DNA of 64,000 nt from NCBI GenBank assembly GCA_963719225.1, contig CAVRAY010000001.1, positions 1,568,001 through 1,632,000 on the forward strand, in the 5' to 3' direction. The position numbers and the translations under genes are program-made. Within the stretch, counting starts at the first letter, position 1. Each line of letters begins with the position of its first letter. Of this stretch, positions 53,840-63,339 are shown piece by piece. The notes under the pieces are model-generated. The model searched no databases. It worked only from the letters and a program-made list of their open reading frames with translations, and was not told where the DNA came from. The DNA comes from Thermoanaerobaculia bacterium. Its GTDB lineage: Bacteria; Acidobacteriota; Thermoanaerobaculia; UBA5066.

Positions 53840-55597
53840 GTGATGGACACGAGCGGATACGAGTTTCCCGCCCGGCGGAACCTGCAAGTCTTCGCGTTCG
53901 ACCCGATGCGGGGCCGGACCGCCGGGAACCGCCTGACTCTGGGCGTCCCCTACGAACGCCTCGCTCCCGGGCCGCTCGGCCAGAGAGTGCAGGTGATCGA
54001 CTTCGACGGGACGAATCGCGTGTTCTACGTGCCCGTGGACCTCGAAGATCCCGCCGTCCTCATGAACGACGGCCTGCAGCCGTCCGAGTCGGACCCGCGC
54101 TTTCACCAGCAGATGGTCTACGCGGTGACGATGTCGGTCGTCGAGACGTTCGAGTCGGCCCTCGGGCGGAAGCTCGCTTTCCGCAGACAGAAGGCGCTGA
54201 GGCTCTTCCCGCATGCGTTCGAGGGAGAGAACGCCTTCTACGACCGGGAGCTCTCGGCCGTGCTCTTCGGGTTCTTCAAGGCCGACGAAAAGGATCCCGG
54301 CCCGAACCTCCCGGGCCAGACCGTCTTCACGTGTCTCTCGCACGACATCATCGCCCACGAGGTGACGCACGCGCTCGTCGATCGACTGAAGCCGTTTCTC
54401 ATCGAGGCCAGCAATCCCGACGTGTACGCGTTCCACGAGGGCTTTGCGGATCTCGTCGCCATCTTTCAGCACTTCACCTTGAAGGAGGTGCTGACCGATA
54501 CGATCCAGAAGACGCGGGGAGACCTCCGGTCGCCCGGGCCTCTCGCGGACCTCGCACAACAATTCGGTTACACGACGGGCCGCCGCGGAGCTCTCCGGAC
54601 GGCGATCGACAAGCCCGACCCGTCCCTGTATCGCACCTCGACGGAGCCGCACGAGAGGGGCTCGATCCTCGTCGCGGCGGTCTTCGACGCGTTCTTCGCC
54701 GTCTACCAGCGCCGCATCGAGGATCTGATCCGCATCGCCACGGGCGGAACCGGCCGGCTCCCCGAGGGCTACCTGCACCCCGATCTCGTGAACCGGATCG
54801 CGACCGAGGCCGCCAAGACCGCCCGGAATGTCCTGACGATGTGCGTGCGGGCCTTCGAATACCTGCCTCCGGTGGACGTGACCTACAGCGACTTCCTGCG
54901 TGCCGTCGTGACGGCCGACTTCGAGACCGTTCCCGCGGACGAGCGAGGCTTGCGCGCTTCGCTGATCGAGGCGTTCCGGCTCCGCGGGGTCTATCCGGAG
55001 GGGCAGGGGGTCGTTTCGCTCGCGGAGGAATCGCTCCTGTGGAGGCCTCCCGAGGGGCCCCTCAAGCTGCCTTTCGATCCTTCGCGGGAGGCCCTCGTCG
55101 TCAGCGCCCAGGCTTTCGACCGCGGACCGAGGCGGGGGGAGCCTTCGGCTCCCGGAGCGGACGAGCGAAGTGCTCTCGACCAATGGGCGGGCCTCCTCGG
55201 GGTCTTCGCGAGCGAGCATCGCCGCGAGCTGGGCCTCGACCCGGACGTCAAGCCCCGCCTCGAAGGCTTCCACACCGTCTTTCGCTTTTCGCCGGAGGGC
55301 CGCCTCGTCGTGGAGCTGGTCGCCCAGTTCGTCCAGGAAGACCACGAAGCCGAAAAGGACCCGGCCTACGGCGGCGTCAAGGTCCTGGGCGGCACGACGG
55401 TGATCGCGTCGGTCAACGGCGACATCCGTTACGTGATCGCCAAGCCCCTTACGAAAGAGCGGCGCGAGGTCCAGCTCGAATTCGCGGCGGCGAGTGACCG
55501 GGAGGATCCGATGCTCGCGTGCGGGCGGGAAGGCTACGAGGCGCATCGGCTGAGATTCCGGAACTTCGCGCGTTTGCACGCGTCGAGGCCGCGTTGA
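53840..55597 (+). CDS. Cytoplasmic gluzincin metallopeptidase (M4/thermolysin-like)
   Basis: ENAFY, DIIAHEVTH, FHEGFAD, EPHERG; no signal peptide. Confidence 0.8.
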   Translation: MMDTSGYEFPARRNLQVFAFDPMRGRTAGNRLTLGVPYERLAPGPLGQRVQVIDFDGTNRVFYVPVDLEDPAVLMNDGLQPSESDPRFHQQMVYAVTMSVVETFESALGRKLAFRRQKALRLFPHAFEGENAFYDRELSAVLFGFFKADEKDPGPNLPGQTVFTCLSHDIIAHEVTHALVDRLKPFLIEASNPDVYAFHEGFADLVAIFQHFTLKEVLTDTIQKTRGDLRSPGPLADLAQQFGYTTGRRGALRTAIDKPDPSLYRTSTEPHERGSILVAAVFDAFFAVYQRRIEDLIRIATGGTGRLPEGYLHPDLVNRIATEAAKTARNVLTMCVRAFEYLPPVDVTYSDFLRAVVTADFETVPADERGLRASLIEAFRLRGVYPEGQGVVSLAEESLLWRPPEGPLKLPFDPSREALVVSAQAFDRGPRRGEPSAPGADERSALDQWAGLLGVFASEHRRELGLDPDVKPRLEGFHTVFRFSPEGRLVVELVAQFVQEDHEAEKDPAYGGVKVLGGTTVIASVNGDIRYVIAKPLTKERREVQLEFAAASDREDPMLACGREGYEAHRLRFRNFARLHASRPR

Positions 55598-55604
55598 GGC
55601 GCCC

Positions 55605-56915
55605 ATGAGCGCGTCCCTTTCGGTCCGCATGTACGACGTGGGCTTCGGAGACTCCTTCCTGTTCACGTTCCCCGCCAAGGGCGGCCGGCGTCCGAAAGTC
55701 CTCGTGGACTGCGGAGTCCATCAGGGTGGACCGGGGCCGGTGCCGATGAAGAAGATCGTGGAAGCGATCGTCGAGGACGTGACGGAAAAGGGCCAGCCGC
55801 GCATCGACCTCGTCATCGCCACGCATCGGCACCGCGATCACGTCTCGGGCTTCGAGCAGGCCGCGTGGAAGGACGTGCGCGTGGACGAGGTCTGGATGCC
55901 GTGGACCGAGCATCCGACCGATCCGGAGGCGCGGGCGATCCGCGAAGCCCAGGCGAAGAAAGCGCAGAAACTGGCGCTGGCGTTCGCCCGCCTCGATCTG
56001 CCGGCCGATCAGAAGCAGTCCCTCCAGGCCGTGGCCGGGAACAACCTGACGAACGCGAAGGCGATGGAGACCCTCCACGAGGGGTTCAAGGGCGCGCCGG
56101 CCCGCCGTTTCCTGCCCGAGAAGGCCGGAGCACGCTCGTGGAAGGAGGACCGGCTGCCCGGCACGACCGTGCATCTCCTGGGGCCCTCCCGAAGCCGGGA
56201 CACCATCCGCGACATGAATCCGCCTCCTGACGAGAGCTTCCTTCGGGCAGCGGCCCTGGAAGCGGCTGGAAAGCTCCTTTCCCCGTTCGAATCGCGCTGG
56301 TACTTCTCCGCCGCCGGAAAGGACTTCGAGGCCTGGTGGTCGAGGCTCGCGCGCTCCCGTCATGAGAAACCGGACGAAGATCAGGACGCGAACCTCCGGC
56401 CCGATGATTCCCTCTTCGCGGCGCGGTGGCTCGACTTCGTGGGGCTCCGCCGCGCCGACCTGAAAGCTGTCGAGGAGAAGGGCAAGGACGATCCCTTCGC
56501 CGCGGCGGTCGCCCTCGAACAGGCGGTGAACGGCACGAGCCTGATGCTGATGCTCGAGATCGGCAAGGCGTTTCTCCTCCTTCCCGGCGACGCGCAATGG
56601 GGGACGTGGCACGAGGCGCTCGACGATGCCGACTCGGCCGAGCTCCTGAAGAAGACGACCTTCTACAAGGTGGGCCACCACGGCAGCCACAACGCCACGC
56701 CCGTCGACTTCGTGAAGCTGCTCAAGGGAGAGGGTCTCACCGCGATGGTCTCGACGGAGACGAAGCCGTTCGACACCATTCCCCGCCTGCCCCTCCTCGA
56801 AGCGCTGAAGGCGAAGTCGAAACGCATCGTGCGCAGCGACGACGCAAAGGCGGACGTGAAGCCGCCGTTCAAGCGCGTCGACGCGATCCGGACCGACCTC
56901 GAGCTCGCGGTCTAG
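55605..56915 (+). CDS. MBL-fold metallo-hydrolase (ComEC/Rec2-like) with large insertions
   Basis: DVGFGD, VDCG, THRHRDH, NGTS, PGDAQ, KVGHHGSHN. Confidence 0.85.
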   Translation: MSASLSVRMYDVGFGDSFLFTFPAKGGRRPKVLVDCGVHQGGPGPVPMKKIVEAIVEDVTEKGQPRIDLVIATHRHRDHVSGFEQAAWKDVRVDEVWMPWTEHPTDPEARAIREAQAKKAQKLALAFARLDLPADQKQSLQAVAGNNLTNAKAMETLHEGFKGAPARRFLPEKAGARSWKEDRLPGTTVHLLGPSRSRDTIRDMNPPPDESFLRAAALEAAGKLLSPFESRWYFSAAGKDFEAWWSRLARSRHEKPDEDQDANLRPDDSLFAARWLDFVGLRRADLKAVEEKGKDDPFAAAVALEQAVNGTSLMLMLEIGKAFLLLPGDAQWGTWHEALDDADSAELLKKTTFYKVGHHGSHNATPVDFVKLLKGEGLTAMVSTETKPFDTIPRLPLLEALKAKSKRIVRSDDAKADVKPPFKRVDAIRTDLELAV

Positions 56916-56934: not shown

Positions 56935-56963
56935 TTGACAGGTCCGTCTCCCGCGCCTAGGCT
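56935..56963 (+). promoter_or_regulatory. Sigma-70 promoter of the lysine operon
   Basis: TTGACA (56935-56940), 17 bp spacer, TAGGCT (56958-56963). Confidence 0.75.
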
Positions 56964-56973
56964 GCACGCCACG

Positions 56974-57051
56974 ATGAGCGCCCCCTGCGCCCGAAAGCGC
57001 AAGACCGCGAAGAAGACTACGCCGCAAGGCGGGCGATGGAGCGTTCTCTAA
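56974..57051 (+). CDS. Putative Lys/Thr-rich leader peptide MSAPCARKRKTAKKTTPQGGRWSVL
   Basis: 25-codon ORF right after the promoter; 4 Lys and 3 Thr within 9 codons; precedes the attenuator hairpin. Confidence 0.7.
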   Translation: MSAPCARKRKTAKKTTPQGGRWSVL

Positions 57052-57091
57052 GATCGACGTCTTTCGACGATCACCACGGAGACACACCAGG

Positions 57092-57122
57092 GGCCCGCCG
57101 GAAACGGCGGGCCTTTTCGTTT
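57092..57122 (+). terminator. Attenuator terminator before asd
   Basis: GGCCCGCCG-GAAA-CGGCGGGCC followed by TTTTCGTTT, ending 15 nt before the asd ATG. Confidence 0.85.
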
Positions 57123-57137
57123 CGAGAAGGAGAACCC

Positions 57138-58217
57138 ATGGCGACCCCGAACGATTTCCGGATTCCGGTGGCGGTCCTCGGCGCGACGGGCGCCGTGGGA
57201 CAGCGCCTCGTCTCCCTGCTGGAGGGTCACCCGCGGTTCGTCCTCGCGGAGGTCGCGGCCTCGGAGAGATCGGCGGGGAAGCGCTACGCCGACGCGACGC
57301 GCTGGTTCCTGCCGGGCGACGTCCCGGCCGCCGCGCGCGACCTCGTCGTCACCTCCGTCGAAGACGAGCTGTCGTCGCCGCTCTGCCTGTCCGCGCTCGA
57401 TGCGGCCGTCGCGGACACCGTCGAGCCGCTCCAGGCCTCACGCGGGAAGCTCGTCGTCTCGAACACGAAGTCGTTCCGGATGAAGCCGGACGTCCCTCTC
57501 GTCATCCCGGAAGTGAACCCGGACCATCTCGCTCTTCTCGACGTGCAGTCGTGGCACGCCGCGGGCGGCGGCATCGTGACGAACCCGAACTGCTCCGTCG
57601 TGGGCCTCGCCATGGCGCTCGCGCCGCTCGAGCGCGCCTTCGGCGTCGGGCGCGTTTCGGTCACGACGATGCAGGCGCTCTCGGGAGCCGGCTATCCCGG
57701 AGTGGCATCGCTGGACGCGCAGGGCAACGTGATTCCGTTCATCGACGGCGAGGAGGAGAAGATCGAGAGGGAGCCGCGAAAGATCCTGGGTCGCCTCGTG
57801 AACGGGCGCGTCGTGGACGCGGACTTCCCGATCTCGGTTTCCGTGAACCGCGTGCCGGTGCGAGACGGCCACACGGAATCGGTCTTCGTCGATCTCAGGA
57901 ACAAGGCGTCTCTGGACGAGGTGCGCGGCGTGCTCGACGCTTTCACGGGAGAGCCGCAGCGGCTGAAGCTGCCCTCTGCTCCGGCGCGGCCGATCGTCGT
58001 CCGCGACGAGCGGGACCGGCCCCAGCCCGCGCGCGACGTCGACGCGGGAAACGGCATGACGGTGACGATCGGGCGCCTGCGGCCCGATCCCGCGTTCGAC
58101 TTCAAGTTCACCGTTCTCGTCCACAACACGGTACGCGGGGCGGCCGGAGCGGCCCTGCTCAACGCCGAGCTGCTCCTGGCGCAGGGGCGCGTCGTCTCGC
58201 GAGCTCCCGTGCGATGA
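57138..58217 (+). CDS. asd: Aspartate-semialdehyde dehydrogenase (archaeal/fungal-type clade)
   Basis: GATGAVGQR, SERSAGKRY, PEVN, NPNC, SGAGYPGV, HNTVRGAAG. Confidence 0.95.
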   Translation: MATPNDFRIPVAVLGATGAVGQRLVSLLEGHPRFVLAEVAASERSAGKRYADATRWFLPGDVPAAARDLVVTSVEDELSSPLCLSALDAAVADTVEPLQASRGKLVVSNTKSFRMKPDVPLVIPEVNPDHLALLDVQSWHAAGGGIVTNPNCSVVGLAMALAPLERAFGVGRVSVTTMQALSGAGYPGVASLDAQGNVIPFIDGEEEKIEREPRKILGRLVNGRVVDADFPISVSVNRVPVRDGHTESVFVDLRNKASLDEVRGVLDAFTGEPQRLKLPSAPARPIVVRDERDRPQPARDVDAGNGMTVTIGRLRPDPAFDFKFTVLVHNTVRGAAGAALLNAELLLAQGRVVSRAPVR

Positions 58218-59578
58218 CCGACGTCCTCAAGTTCGGCGGGACGTCGGTGGGATCGGCCGAGCGGATCCGGGACGTCGCGCGCCTCGTCGAAACGCGCGGG
58301 GGAGAGCCGGGCCTCGTCGTCGTCTCGGCGATGGCCGGGGTGACGGACCTTCTGGTCGGATTGAAGAATTCTTCGAAAGAGAAGGAGCGGGCCGCTGCCG
58401 AGTCCGCGCTCGACGAGCTGGAAGGTCGCCACCGCGCGGCGCTCGATGGCCTTTCCCTTCCCGAAAGCGAGAAGCGGATCTGCGCCGTCGCGATCGACGA
58501 GGAGATGCGGCGATGCCGGGAGCTGTCTCTCGGGATCTCCCTACTCGAAGAAATCTCTCCTCGAACCTCGGATGCGCTCCTGGCGATCGGAGAATTGATC
58601 TGCTCGCGCCTCGTCGCCGCCGCGCTCCGCGCGAGCGGCGCGGAGGCCGTGTGGATCGATCCGCGCGACGTCCTCGCGACGGACCGCTCGTACGGCGCGG
58701 CGCTGGCGGACGAGAAGGAGACCGCGATCCGCGTGGCCAGGCACGTCGCGCCTCACCTCGCGGCGAGCCGGATCGTCGTCACGGGGGGCTTCGTCGGCGC
58801 CGCGCCGGACGGCTCGACGACGACCCTCGGCCGGGGAGGGTCGGACTACTCGGCCGCGCTCTTCGGCGCCGCGCTCCACGACATCGGGCGGTCCGTGGGC
58901 CGGATCGAGATCTGGACGGACGTGGACGGAATCCTGACCGCCGATCCACGCGTGGTTTCCGCGGCGCGGCTCGTGCCGGAGGTGAGCTATCCCGAGGCGG
59001 CCGAGCTGGCGTTCTTCGGAGCGAAGGTCCTCCATCCGGCCACGATCCGCCCGGCCGTGGCGCGCGGGATCCCGGTCGCCGTCAAGAACACGTTCCGCCC
59101 CGAATGCCCTGGAACCGTCGTGCGCCAGGACGTGCCCGGGAACGGCGTCCGGGCCGTCGCCATGCGCGGGGGGGTGACGGCGCTCTTCGTGGGCAGCCCG
59201 CGCATGCTGCTCGCCCACGGCTACGCGGCGAAGGTCTTCTCCGTCTTCGAGAAGCACGGCGTGCCGGTGGACGTCATCGCGACGAGCGAGGTCTCGATTT
59301 CCATCACGGTGAGCGAAAAGGCGCCCCTCGAAGGCGTCGTGCGCGACCTTTCCGAGTTCGCCGAGGTCTCGCTCCTCAAGCATCTCGCGGTCGTGTCCGT
59401 CGTCGGAAAGGGTCTGCGCTCGACGGCCGGGGTCGCCTTCCGGATCTTCGGCGCGGTCGGCGACGTGAACGTCGTCCTCATCTCGCAGGGCGCATCCGAC
59501 ACGAACGTGACTTTCGTGGTCGACGGAAACGACGCACCAGAAGCGCTGCGAAGGCTCCACAGGGAGTTCTTCGAATGA
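58214..59578 (+). CDS. lysC: Aspartate kinase
   Basis: KFGGTSV, LGRGGSDYSA, WTDVDG, GAKVLHP, two ACT domains. Confidence 0.93.
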   Translation: MTDVLKFGGTSVGSAERIRDVARLVETRGGEPGLVVVSAMAGVTDLLVGLKNSSKEKERAAAESALDELEGRHRAALDGLSLPESEKRICAVAIDEEMRRCRELSLGISLLEEISPRTSDALLAIGELICSRLVAAALRASGAEAVWIDPRDVLATDRSYGAALADEKETAIRVARHVAPHLAASRIVVTGGFVGAAPDGSTTTLGRGGSDYSAALFGAALHDIGRSVGRIEIWTDVDGILTADPRVVSAARLVPEVSYPEAAELAFFGAKVLHPATIRPAVARGIPVAVKNTFRPECPGTVVRQDVPGNGVRAVAMRGGVTALFVGSPRMLLAHGYAAKVFSVFEKHGVPVDVIATSEVSISITVSEKAPLEGVVRDLSEFAEVSLLKHLAVVSVVGKGLRSTAGVAFRIFGAVGDVNVVLISQGASDTNVTFVVDGNDAPEALRRLHREFFE

Positions 59579-60267
59579 AAGCCCTTCTGGTCGGATACGG
59601 GAAGATGGGGAAAGCCATCGAGATGGCGCTGATCCACAGCGGGCACGAAGTCGCCGGACGGTTGGGGCGCAAAGAGATTTCGGACTTTCCGATCTGCGAA
59701 GTCGCCTTTGAGTTCACCACGCCCGCCTCCGCTCCTCTGGTGGTCCCCCTTCTCCTTTCTCAGAAAATCCCGGTCGTCTCCGGGACGACCGGCTGGGACA
59801 CGACTTCGGCCGCGCACCTCGCACGGGAACAAAAGACTCTTTTTCTTCACTCCTCGAATTTTTCCCTAGGCGTCGCCGCGCTCAGGCGCGCGGTCGCCGC
59901 CGCTGCCGCCGCTCTCGCGCCGTTCTCCGAGTTCGAGCCGGGAATCGTGGAGCGGCATCACGCGGCCAAGAAAGACTCCCCCTCGGGAACCGCACGCACC
60001 CTCGCGCTCGACATCACGCGCGAGCCTCTCTCGAAGAGGTCCATCCCGATCGTCTCCCTCAGGCAGGGCGGCCAGCCGGGAGAGCATTCGGTCTACTTCG
60101 AGGGCACGGACGAGACGCTGGAGCTCGTGCACCGCGCCCGCTCGCGTTCGATCTTTGCGCTTGGCGCCGTGCGCGCCGCGGAATGGATGATCGACTCGGG
60201 CCGCTCGGGCCCGGTGACCTTCGACGAATTCTTCGACGATCTGTCGCTCAAGGGAGGCACTTCATGA
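59575..60267 (+). CDS. dapB: 4-hydroxy-tetrahydrodipicolinate reductase
   Basis: GYGKMG, SGTTGW, NFSLGV, ERHHAAKKDSPSGTA. Confidence 0.92.
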   Translation: MKALLVGYGKMGKAIEMALIHSGHEVAGRLGRKEISDFPICEVAFEFTTPASAPLVVPLLLSQKIPVVSGTTGWDTTSAAHLAREQKTLFLHSSNFSLGVAALRRAVAAAAAALAPFSEFEPGIVERHHAAKKDSPSGTARTLALDITREPLSKRSIPIVSLRQGGQPGEHSVYFEGTDETLELVHRARSRSIFALGAVRAAEWMIDSGRSGPVTFDEFFDDLSLKGGTS

Positions 60268-61232
60268 TTACGTCAGCACCCGGGCAGAACTCTTCATCCT
60301 CCAGGAATCTCCCTCTCTCCGGGGTCTTCACCGCGATCGTCACGCCGTTTCGCGACGACGGGTCCGTCGACGAAGCGGGCCTCCGCCGGCTCGCGAAACG
60401 CCAGATCGAGGGCGGCGTCGCGGGTCTCGTCCCGTGCGGGACGACGGGCGAAGCCGTCACGCTGGACGCCGAGGAGCACGAGCGTGTCGTCGCCATCGTC
60501 GCCGAGGAGGCGCGGACGTCGTCGCGGCGCGTCACGGTGATCGCGGGCTGCGGCTCGAACGACACGCGGAAGTCACAGGCTCTCGCCGAACGGTGCCGTC
60601 GGGCGGGCGCCGACGCGCTTCTCGTCGTCACGCCTTACTACAACAAGCCCACGCCGAGAGGCCTGGTCGCGCACTTCCTGGCCGTCGCCGACGCGGGACG
60701 CCTGCCGCTCGTTCTTTACAACGTGCCGGGACGCACCGGACTGAACATGCAGCCGGACACCATTCTCGAGCTCGCGAAGGACCCGCGCATCGTCGCCGTG
60801 AAGGAAGCTTCGGGCAGCCTCGACCAGGCCTGCGAGATCCTCCGCGCCCGTCCGGCCGGATTCACCGTCCTCTCCGGCGAGGACTCGCTGGCGATCCCGA
60901 TGATCTCCTGCGGCGCCGAGGGCGTGATCGCGGTCGTCTCGAACGAGGCCCCCGGTCTTTACGCGGAGGCGATTGCCGCGGCCCTCGCCGGGAATCGCGC
61001 GCGCGCGTCGGAGCTCCAGGCAAAGATCTTCCCGCTCATGAAAGCGAATTTCCGCGAATCGAATCCGATCCCGGTCAAGTGGGCTCTCGAGCGGCTCGGC
61101 CTGATCGGGGGCGCGCTGCGTCTCCCGCTCGTTCCGCTCTCGCCGCAGCACCAAGCCCCGGTCGAGGAGGCGCTCAGGACCGCCGGTCTCCTCGATGCCG
61201 CGGGCAAGCCGGTCGAGATGGCGGCCGCGTGA
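60264..61232 (+). CDS. dapA: 4-hydroxy-tetrahydrodipicolinate synthase
   Basis: GTTGE, PYYNKP, YNVPGRTG, VKEASG, SNPIPVK. Confidence 0.95.
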   Translation: MITSAPGQNSSSSRNLPLSGVFTAIVTPFRDDGSVDEAGLRRLAKRQIEGGVAGLVPCGTTGEAVTLDAEEHERVVAIVAEEARTSSRRVTVIAGCGSNDTRKSQALAERCRRAGADALLVVTPYYNKPTPRGLVAHFLAVADAGRLPLVLYNVPGRTGLNMQPDTILELAKDPRIVAVKEASGSLDQACEILRARPAGFTVLSGEDSLAIPMISCGAEGVIAVVSNEAPGLYAEAIAAALAGNRARASELQAKIFPLMKANFRESNPIPVKWALERLGLIGGALRLPLVPLSPQHQAPVEEALRTAGLLDAAGKPVEMAAA

Positions 61233-61996
61233 CGCGCGAGGAGGTCGTGGCTCTTCTCGAGGCGCTCGAGCGCGGCGAGGTCCGCGCGGCTTCTTCTGAC
61301 GCCGAGGGAAACTGGGTTGCCAACGCGGGCGTCAAGGAGGGCATCCTCGAGGCCTTCCGGCTCGGCGTCGAAGAGCCGAGCGAGGCCGGCCCGCTGCTCT
61401 TCCGGGACCGCGACACGCTGCCACCCCGCCGGCCTCTTCCCGAAGGCGTGCGCGTCGTCCCGGGCGGGACGGCGCTTCGCCGCGGCGCGTTTCTCGCGAG
61501 GGGCGTCGTCGTGATGCCGCCCGCCTACGTGAACGTGGGCGCGTACGTCGACGAGGGATCGATGATCGACAGCCATGCGCTCGTGGGCTCCTGCGCGCAG
61601 ATCGGGAAGAAGGTCCACCTCTCGGCGGCCGCGCAGGTGGGCGGCGTCCTCGAGCCCGTGGGCGCGGTCCCCGTCGTCATCGAGGACGAAGTCTTCGTGG
61701 GCGGCGGTGCCGGGATCTACGAAGGCGTCCGCGTGAGGAAGCGAGCCGTCCTCGCGGCGGGCGTCATCCTGACGGCCTCGAGCGTCGTGTTCGATCCCGT
61801 GAACGAGCGGGAGCTGCGCTCGGCGCCGGGCCGCCCGCTCGTCATCCCCGAGGGCGCCGTCGTCGTCCCGGGCTCGAGGCGGGCCTCGGGCGCCTGGGCG
61901 GAGGCCCGGGGGCTTTCGCTCTCGGCTCCGATCATCGTGAAGTATCGCGACGCGAAGACGGACGCGAGGACGGTGCTCGAGAGCGCGCTGCGGTGA
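61229..61996 (+). CDS. dapD: Tetrahydrodipicolinate N-succinyltransferase
   Basis: RVVPGG, YVNVGAYVD, VGSCAQIG, GGVLEP, KYRDAKT. Confidence 0.92.
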   Translation: MTREEVVALLEALERGEVRAASSDAEGNWVANAGVKEGILEAFRLGVEEPSEAGPLLFRDRDTLPPRRPLPEGVRVVPGGTALRRGAFLARGVVVMPPAYVNVGAYVDEGSMIDSHALVGSCAQIGKKVHLSAAAQVGGVLEPVGAVPVVIEDEVFVGGGAGIYEGVRVRKRAVLAAGVILTASSVVFDPVNERELRSAPGRPLVIPEGAVVVPGSRRASGAWAEARGLSLSAPIIVKYRDAKTDARTVLESALR

Positions 61997-62076: not shown

Positions 62077-63339
62077 TTGCCGGACTCCGTTTTGCGTCGT
62101 GCCGCGAGTCTCTTCGGAACGCCGCTGTATCTGTACGACTTCGATGTGATCGAACGCCAGGTGTTGCGCCTCAGGCACGCCCTCGGCCCCCGCTTCGAGC
62201 TCGCGTATGCGGTCAAGGCCAACCCCTCGCTCGGAATTCTTTCCTTTCTAAGAAAATTCGGTCTCTCCTCGGACGTCGCGTCCCGGGGCGAGCTGCTCGC
62301 GGTGCGCCTGGCCGGATGTCCACCTTCCAAGATCCTCTCGACCGGCCCCGCGAAAACCGACGCCGACCTCGAAGCGCTCGTGCGCGCTCGAGTGTCGATT
62401 GTCCATGCGGAGGGTGAATGGGAGCTCGAACGCCTCGAGGAACTGGCAAGACGCCTGAGAAGGCAAGTTCCCGTGGGCCTTCGCCTGAACCCGCCCTGGG
62501 GCATTGCCGAAAAGCGCGTCATCATCGGTGGCCCCGGCGCGAAGAAGTTCGGATTCGACTTGAAGAGCGCGAGAGACGTTCTTCGAACGACGAAGAAATT
62601 CCCGCATCTCGACGTCTGCGGCTTTCAGGTGTTCAACGCCTCGAACGTCCTCGACGCGCGGCTCCTCGTCGAGAACACGCGTCGCGTGCTCGACCTCGCT
62701 CTTTCACTTTCGAAGAAATACGGCGTTCCGCTCCGCTCCGTGGATTTCGGTGGCGGCTTCGGCGTGCCATACGCCGGAAGAGAAAGACCACTGGATCTAG
62801 GAGTTCTTGGAAAGGGGCTGAGGGAGGTCGCGAAGGAGGCGCGCTCGAGCGGCCTGCCCGACTCGACTCGCCTCGTGTTCGAGCCCGGGCGCTTTCTCGT
62901 GGCCGAAAGCGGAACGTACCTCGTGAAGGTTCTGGGGACGAAACGGAGCCGCGGCGTCGACTACGTCCTCATGGATGGCGGTGTCCACCACTTCCTCCGC
63001 CCGGTCCTCCTCGGAACTCCCCACCGCGTCAGGCTCGTCAAAGGAACGGCGGGCGCTCGCGGCGGCCGGTCTTCACCTTCTAAGAAATCTCTGGTTCTTT
63101 CCGGTCCCCTCTGTACGTCTCTCGACATCCTCCATCCGGCCGCGCACCTCCCGCTCCCCGCCCGTGGCGACCTCCTCGCCTTCGAGAAAGCGGGCGCCTA
63201 CGGCTTCACCGAGTCGATGCCGCTCTTCCTCTCGCACGCGTGGCCGGCCGAGGTCGCCGTGTGGAAAGGTCGAATCACTCTCCTGAGGAGGCCGCCGACG
63301 GTGGAATCGCTCCTTCGTGCGCAGAGGCGGCAGGTGTGA
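62077..63339 (+). CDS. lysA: Fold-type III PLP decarboxylase, probable diaminopimelate decarboxylase
   Basis: YAVKAN, KFG, DFGGG, EPGR, GPLC, GAYG; last gene of the dap operon. Confidence 0.75.
   Translation: MPDSVLRRAASLFGTPLYLYDFDVIERQVLRLRHALGPRFELAYAVKANPSLGILSFLRKFGLSSDVASRGELLAVRLAGCPPSKILSTGPAKTDADLEALVRARVSIVHAEGEWELERLEELARRLRRQVPVGLRLNPPWGIAEKRVIIGGPGAKKFGFDLKSARDVLRTTKKFPHLDVCGFQVFNASNVLDARLLVENTRRVLDLALSLSKKYGVPLRSVDFGGGFGVPYAGRERPLDLGVLGKGLREVAKEARSSGLPDSTRLVFEPGRFLVAESGTYLVKVLGTKRSRGVDYVLMDGGVHHFLRPVLLGTPHRVRLVKGTAGARGGRSSPSKKSLVLSGPLCTSLDILHPAAHLPLPARGDLLAFEKAGAYGFTESMPLFLSHAWPAEVAVWKGRITLLRRPPTVESLLRAQRRQV
63076..63090 (+). repeat. Dispersed motif CCTTCTAAGAAATCT, perfect copy
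   Basis: Inside lysA, encodes PSKKS. Confidence 0.7.

Follow-up and report, generated by a model that had tools for sequence, protein, structure and literature searches.

The window, i.e., the whole stretch of 64,000 nucleotides that was analyzed, carries on its forward strand a six-gene operon comprising asd (aspartate-semialdehyde dehydrogenase; 57138..58217), lysC (aspartokinase; 58214..59578), a dapB-like gene (59575..60267), dapA (60264..61232), dapD (61229..61996), and a lysA-like gene (62077..63339). The matches of three of these genes fall slightly under the curated cut-offs: lysC, with the lysine-sensitive aspartokinase III as its best match (451 bits; cut-off 455), dapB (104.8 bits; cut-off 122) and lysA (279.5 bits; cut-off 297.9). 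The asd gene is the only copy found in the genome, the second Pfam match for it being argC, so that it is taken as single-copy. Further, the genome carries a second aspartokinase encoded with thrB-thrC, before which no obvious leader was seen by eye, and a separate hom. The first-pass annotation had taken asd and lysC together as feeding both the lysine and the threonine pathways; in view of the second aspartokinase with thrB-thrC, the shared enzyme that accounts for the link is the single-copy asd. Just before the promoter described below, at 53840-56915, lie two genes that may be an inserted defence-like pair: a protease-like ORF of 585 aa, unmatched in NCBIfam, and an MBL-fold hydrolase of 436 aa with weak matches, far below cut-off, to the anti-phage Avs1a and 6A-MBL models. 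Among relatives, L003 shares this upstream sequence, and many others have a divergent pdhA in its place.

Directly upstream of asd lies a compact leader, all elements of which are on the forward strand. It opens with a −35 box, TTGACA (56935..56940), followed after 17 nt by a −10-like box, TAGGCT (56958..56963), which matches the consensus at three of six positions. Among the leaders collected from relatives, the −35 box stands 36–40 nt before the start of the leader-peptide ORF (uORF) in 52 of 54, and all 52 that have it show a YAnnnT hexamer at a spacer of 16–18. Transcription is predicted to start merely 2–4 bases before the uORF ATG, which would make the message near-leaderless. The uORF itself, 25 codons encoding MSAPCARKRKTAKKTTPQGGRWSVL, spans 56974..57051, from the ATG at 56974 to a TAA at 57049-57051. 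Within it, the dicodon CGA AAG (Arg-Lys; 56992..56997), identical in all 53 aligned rows, marks the start of a control-codon cluster (56995..57021), composed in the window of four Lys codons, all AAG, and three Thr codons (ACC, ACT and ACG), and in relatives of Lys, Thr, Met and Ile codons. There follow a short protector hairpin (1:2), CGCC-GCAA-GGCG (57020..57031; −7.4 kcal/mol), and segment 2, GGCGGGC (57028..57034), the antiterminator strand, complementary to the GCCCGCC of segment 3 (57093-57099). A further hairpin is predicted directly after the uORF stop codon (57052..57072), within the loop of the 2:3 pairing; its sequence varies by genus and it is predicted in most leaders (z below −2 in 26 of 54), with no counterpart in the sister family f3, and it is possibly a pause or loop-shortening element. 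The leader closes with the 3:4 terminator hairpin of 9 bp and a GAAA loop (57092..57113), which is also the consensus fold of the aligned leaders, a weak, interrupted U tract visible in both sequence and alignment (TTTTCGTTT; 57114..57122), and the Shine-Dalgarno-like AAGGAG of asd (57127..57132).

On re-reading the sequence, the promoter, the ORF, the codon cluster, the short hairpin and the GGCGGGC complementarity were all found where the first-pass annotation had placed them. Its terminator was confirmed as well, with a 9-bp stem and a U tract that is interrupted. A simple consensus scan of the leader called neither a promoter nor a terminator, because the −10 box matches at just half of its positions and the U tract is broken. 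The leader in the window folds better than 200 of 200 shuffled versions (z −3.2), and each of its elements recurs in relatives. TTGACA coupled to a near-leaderless short ORF occurs at only eight sites in the 4.75-Mb genome, and only that before asd has a Lys/Thr cluster.

The distribution of the element was traced in the family of Thermoanaerobaculia to which the window belongs; the named sequences nearest to its asd are likewise from Thermoanaerobaculia, in the phylum Acidobacteriota. With asd found in 56 of its 63 genomes, 55 loci were obtained (G007, at a contig edge, was left out), and two without upstream DNA leave 53 informative loci, the window included. The uORF and the terminator are present in 52 of these 53, which bears out the expectation of a K/T-rich uORF kept upstream of asd in relatives. 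The element is missing in L048 (genome G042), and one of the 52, L032 (genome G045; L032:616-797), keeps the promoter and terminator with its control codons largely lost; both may represent decay of the attenuator. The genomes of L032 and L048 both have hom. Beyond the family, the element also precedes asd in three of three loci of the sister family f3. Immediately upstream of asd, no such leader was seen in any of the 13 loci of family f2, in seven of seven loci of family f5 (one of them, L070, from the unpublished genome G219), among the readable ones of seven loci of other families, or in 62 distant asd loci, where the 600 nt before asd were read and operons led by another gene would be missed. 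A pattern scan of metagenomes for the promoter, CGAAAG and segment 2 gave at least 120 matches. Of the 120 listed, 111 had nothing further and five had just the in-frame ATG, including one leader truncated at the end of its contig; all four among the matches listed that combined an in-frame ATG with a terminator had asd downstream.

When the first ATG 34–43 bases after TTGACA is taken as the uORF start, this promoter-anchored ATG shares its reading frame with CGA AAG in every one of 51 loci, and one further locus starts with GTG. The spacings from ATG to CGA AAG are of six kinds (18, 21, 24, 27, 30 and 39 bases), and the weight of this frame keeping rests on these six, because close kin are not independent. 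Of the 468 codons in the nine positions after CGA, 348 encode Lys (136), Thr (162), Met (42) or Ile (8). Among those starting with A, 348 of 349 are from this set, with a single AGG as the sole exception and no Asn or Ser codon, against a genome background of 76% (A-starting codons of 1091 long ORFs); the other two reading frames across the cluster yield less than 2% of such codons. Selection is hence on the amino acids encoded by the cluster, since the need for an A-rich RNA loop would give no reason to avoid AAC, AGC and AGG. Counted by leader, all 52 have Lys, 51 have Thr, 39 have Met and eight have Ile. Thus, the earlier proposal of Lys/Thr sensing describes the copy in the window, which has only these two, and is too narrow for the family, where the set extends to Met and in some cases Ile. 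Outside the cluster, the N-terminal part and the length (25–38 aa) vary, five of 51 leaders shift frame after the cluster, and the peptide tails differ. The frame changes and divergent tails fit a sensor rather than a functional peptide. CGA accounts for 5.6% of the Arg codons in this genome, yet the CGA AAG dicodon is invariant; our guess would be a pause or timing element. A C-GAAA-G tetraloop was considered as a general reason for the invariant CGAAAG and rejected, the closing pair being probable in only 11 of 54 leaders.

The pathway offers a rationale for this codon set. Asd catalyzes the one step common to Lys, Thr, Met and Ile synthesis, and the single asd would explain why the leaders mix these codons. 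The sister family f3 provides a contrast: its leaders, in three of three cases, read RKSKKQLKRKP, i.e., five Lys with no Thr, Met or Ile. In parallel, hom was found in none of the seven f3 genomes searched versus 54 of 62 from the window's family, thrB scored above cut-off in none of three f3 genomes, and each of three has a single aspartokinase. The Lys-only leaders and the undetected threonine branch together suggest that codon content follows pathway content, as one natural contrast stemming from one evolutionary event. Against this link, genome G135 has a thrC-like gene above cut-off, and G060 (96% complete) shows no hom match, yet keeps both a K/T/M leader and thrB.

At the level of RNA, an alignment of 53 leaders yields the terminator as its consensus fold, with nine consensus pairs and a variable loop. 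Its two outer pairs show compensatory changes in 8 and 10 of the 53 rows. Each pair of the 7-bp core of the 2:3 helix is possible in 50–53 of the 53 rows, with covariation not above that of shuffles. Covarying hairpins, as sought by the first-pass annotation, were hence found for the outer part of the terminator, but the antiterminator core is conserved without covariation. In f3, the 2:3 helix is lengthened to about 16 bp with a sequence of its own. Folding predicts, for 51 of 54 leaders, a local hairpin that takes up at least three bases of segment 2, and the last control codon starts 9–12 nt before segment 2 in 48 of 54. We folded transcripts ending ahead of segment 4 while masking the bases that a ribosome would cover. 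With the A site in or before the cluster, the mean probability of 2:3 is 0.80–0.98; it falls to 0.30 two codons past the cluster and to 0.08 or less beyond. The same step appeared with all six mask sizes tried on the window, the drop being partly built in by the length of the mask. Once the ribosome stands at the stop codon, the probability of 2:3 has a mean of 0.33 and a median of 0.07. At equilibrium without a ribosome, 2:3 also wins (mean 0.85), so the switch would depend on kinetics. A cognate-versus-swapped duplex comparison did not separate from the control either 2:3 with its extension or a long 1:2 helix (cognate best in 2, 3 and 2 of nine groups); this long helix, of the 5′ part of the ORF with segment 2, stands as a prediction only. 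RNA data were available from 11 runs (shares 0.04–0.07), of which contigs from four were examined, all of them of relatives (distant strains). Two 187-base contigs cover the leader; they extend upstream through the promoter, and so show neither the start, the end nor the level of a transcript.

Based on these observations, we regard it as highly probable that the asd leader is a classical ribosome-sensed transcription attenuator, and we infer its translation, the termination and the response to amino acids from comparative sequence evidence. The attenuator prediction is supported by an in-frame, codon-selected uORF and by antiterminator and terminator strands that have been kept across relatives, with no known riboswitch model fitting the region; comparison thus backs the leader-peptide reading given by the first-pass annotation. 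Briefly, we advance the following plausible mechanism. On the near-leaderless message, the uORF would be translated from a transcript beginning 2–4 bases upstream of its ATG. When charged tRNA for Lys or Thr (or Met and Ile in relatives) is scarce, the ribosome would stall in the cluster, block the protector pairings and leave segment 2 free. Segments 2 and 3 could then pair before segment 4 is made, and the polymerase would read on into asd. When the amino acids are plentiful, the ribosome would instead run over segment 2 to the stop codon, allowing 3:4 to form and transcription to end near 57120.

The same ribosome-sensed leader might, alternatively, exert its main effect on asd translation, by making the ribosome-binding site of asd inaccessible or accessible; the weak terminator would then play a secondary part. 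A fold of 57034-57148 that pairs the end of the uORF with the Shine-Dalgarno region of asd would suit such a role, as would the broken U tract and the failure of the consensus scan to call the terminator. However, the distance from the hairpin to the asd start differs by tens of bases among genera, while the hairpin and its U-rich tail stay fixed, and an operon of six genes would arguably be better served by transcriptional control; we consider this version unlikely. It is less likely still that the ORF encodes a small basic peptide with a function of its own, or marks a small RNA, with the hairpin as a constitutive leaky terminator. The peptide is indeed rich in Lys and Arg, and two further short ORFs elsewhere in the genome are also Lys-rich and have terminators. 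Nevertheless, Lys is freely swapped with the neutral Thr, Met and Ile and never with Asn or Ser, a basic peptide would have to tolerate the variable ends, lengths and post-cluster frame shifts noted above, and the element was found only before asd, both in the family loci and among the metagenome matches listed.

The possibility of a riboswitch centers on a full-length match to the Moco (molybdenum cofactor) model RF01055 of Rfam at 57034-57148 (25.2 bits, E 0.004), which would make the region a molybdenum-related riboswitch or a variant with a changed ligand. In the accessible part of its description (PMC2408646), the Moco riboswitch shares with the asd leader a GC-rich stem, a GAAA loop and CAGGG-like bases before it. 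Yet, the score is below the 36-bit cut-off and is the maximum for an asd leader over 63 family genomes, in which the matches mostly cover model positions 76–112, that is, the hairpin; a weak match recurs in one of 12 relatives' loci, and the GAAA loop and junction bases vary among relatives. True copies, at 38–70 bits, lie elsewhere in 14 genomes, and the genes downstream of the leader are asd-lysC-dap-lysA rather than those of molybdenum-cofactor synthesis. We therefore rejected this identity as a chance match, sub-threshold, not kept in relatives and before the wrong genes; it is very improbable and largely refuted. The lysine riboswitch (RF00168) gave no match in the source genome or in 150 genomes of the order, with the positive controls working, and Thr_leader (RF00506) matched neither the window, at an E limit of 10, nor the loci of 12 relatives, at an E limit of 0.5. 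Hence, the first-pass annotation's own counter-case, a match to a known riboswitch model, turned up nothing for RF00168 and only the sub-cut-off hit for RF01055.

Several other loci were recorded in the course of this survey. A gene resembling the glutamate synthase large subunit (named by eye) is preceded by another candidate near-leaderless attenuator, at G000:C1 about 805740-805950 (L196:440-650). The ORF of this attenuator, of 33–39 aa, is rich in Ile, Leu, Val and Thr, with a conserved end, LVL.KR...GRGD, and a GCGGGC strand is complementary to a terminator with a U tract. Among 17 close orthologue loci of genus g1, 16 have this leader, one of them starting with GTG, and L205 is without it; in 13 more distant loci it was not seen. 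Likewise, at G000:C1 about 2676670-2676490 on the minus strand (L076), genes resembling a his operon are preceded by a near-leaderless leader rich in His, MIFVVRHWHVHHS, which has a TTGACA box 39 bases before it and is equipped with a terminator; this leader has the same design as the asd leader, in the same genome. A Lys-rich ORF of 20 aa, MPAKKKAAKKSTKKGKKGKK, occurs twice, at G000:C2 about 178250 (+) and 640150 (−), with a terminator and a strong ribosome-binding site. Moco riboswitches above cut-off were located at G042:C34:27687-27810 and in 13 genomes of genus g10, with none found in genus g1. Finally, at L075:5300-9250, hom and an S10-type peptidase-like gene stand back to back, with an IS481-like transposase beside hom (names by eye).

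These considerations lead to a broader proposal: (i) integration of all four aspartate-family amino acids (Lys, Thr, Met and Ile) by one near-leaderless attenuator; (ii) a codon set tuned to metabolism, down to Lys alone where the homoserine branch is gone; (iii) a CGA-AAG pause or timing element for the ribosome that couples leaderless translation to the polymerase; (iv) a wide use of such leaders in the lineage, including the branched-chain-rich one before glutamate synthase. Taken jointly, we offer this only tentatively, as a combination that may well fail in one or more of its parts. The asd leader nonetheless suggests that an abundant group of uncultured soil Acidobacteriota uses a leader peptide for its lysine genes, reading up to four amino acids; it adds a family of unannotated small ORFs and a compact, testable genetic sensor for Lys, Thr and Met starvation. 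The sister family f3 serves as a natural test of whether codon content follows pathway content.

Among the closest known systems is thrL, the attenuator of the E. coli thr operon, a short leader ORF with clustered codons for several products of the pathway. Both have the protector, antiterminator and terminator arrangement and a target in the aspartate pathway; the asd leader differs in having no match to the Rfam model RF00506, in adding Lys and Met codons, in being near-leaderless and in preceding asd-lysC-dap-lysA, and the two are probably of independent origin. In Thermus thermophilus, a leader peptide with Lys codons reportedly controls lysine synthesis from the aminoadipate gene cluster; that leader serves a different route and a single amino acid, whereas the asd leader is multivalent and belongs to the diaminopimelate route. 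The thrA leader of Pasteurellales is said to be predicted to read Thr, Ile and Met. It resembles the asd leader in having an extra codon type where one enzyme serves several amino acids, and differs in the absence of Lys, in the gene and in the lineage. For lysine genes of the diaminopimelate route, control by riboswitches or repressors is the usual description. The mechanism proposed here is a textbook one; what appears to be new is the four-amino-acid codon set, its Lys-only form where no homoserine branch was found, and the rare codon that never varies.

The literature searched, with subscription journals mostly outside its reach, held no description of the asd element, and in the accessible part of PMC2965389 almost no predicted attenuators of Acidobacteria have an assigned function. 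A precedent before asd is a putative leaderless leader peptide of Deinococcus deserti, Deide_15739, for which attenuation was proposed and which is listed for Met/Thr/Lys/Ile biosynthesis in supplementary Table S9 (PMC4007540, in the portion available). As given there, that peptide is of 10 aa with Thr and Ile and no Lys codon, comes from a different phylum, has a putative function and shows no resemblance in sequence to the asd leader. Within the acidobacteria, a lysine riboswitch is listed before asd-lysC of Ca. Solibacter usitatus (PMC5584792, in its available portion). That riboswitch (RF00168) senses free lysine, whereas the attenuator proposed here would sense the charging of tRNA.
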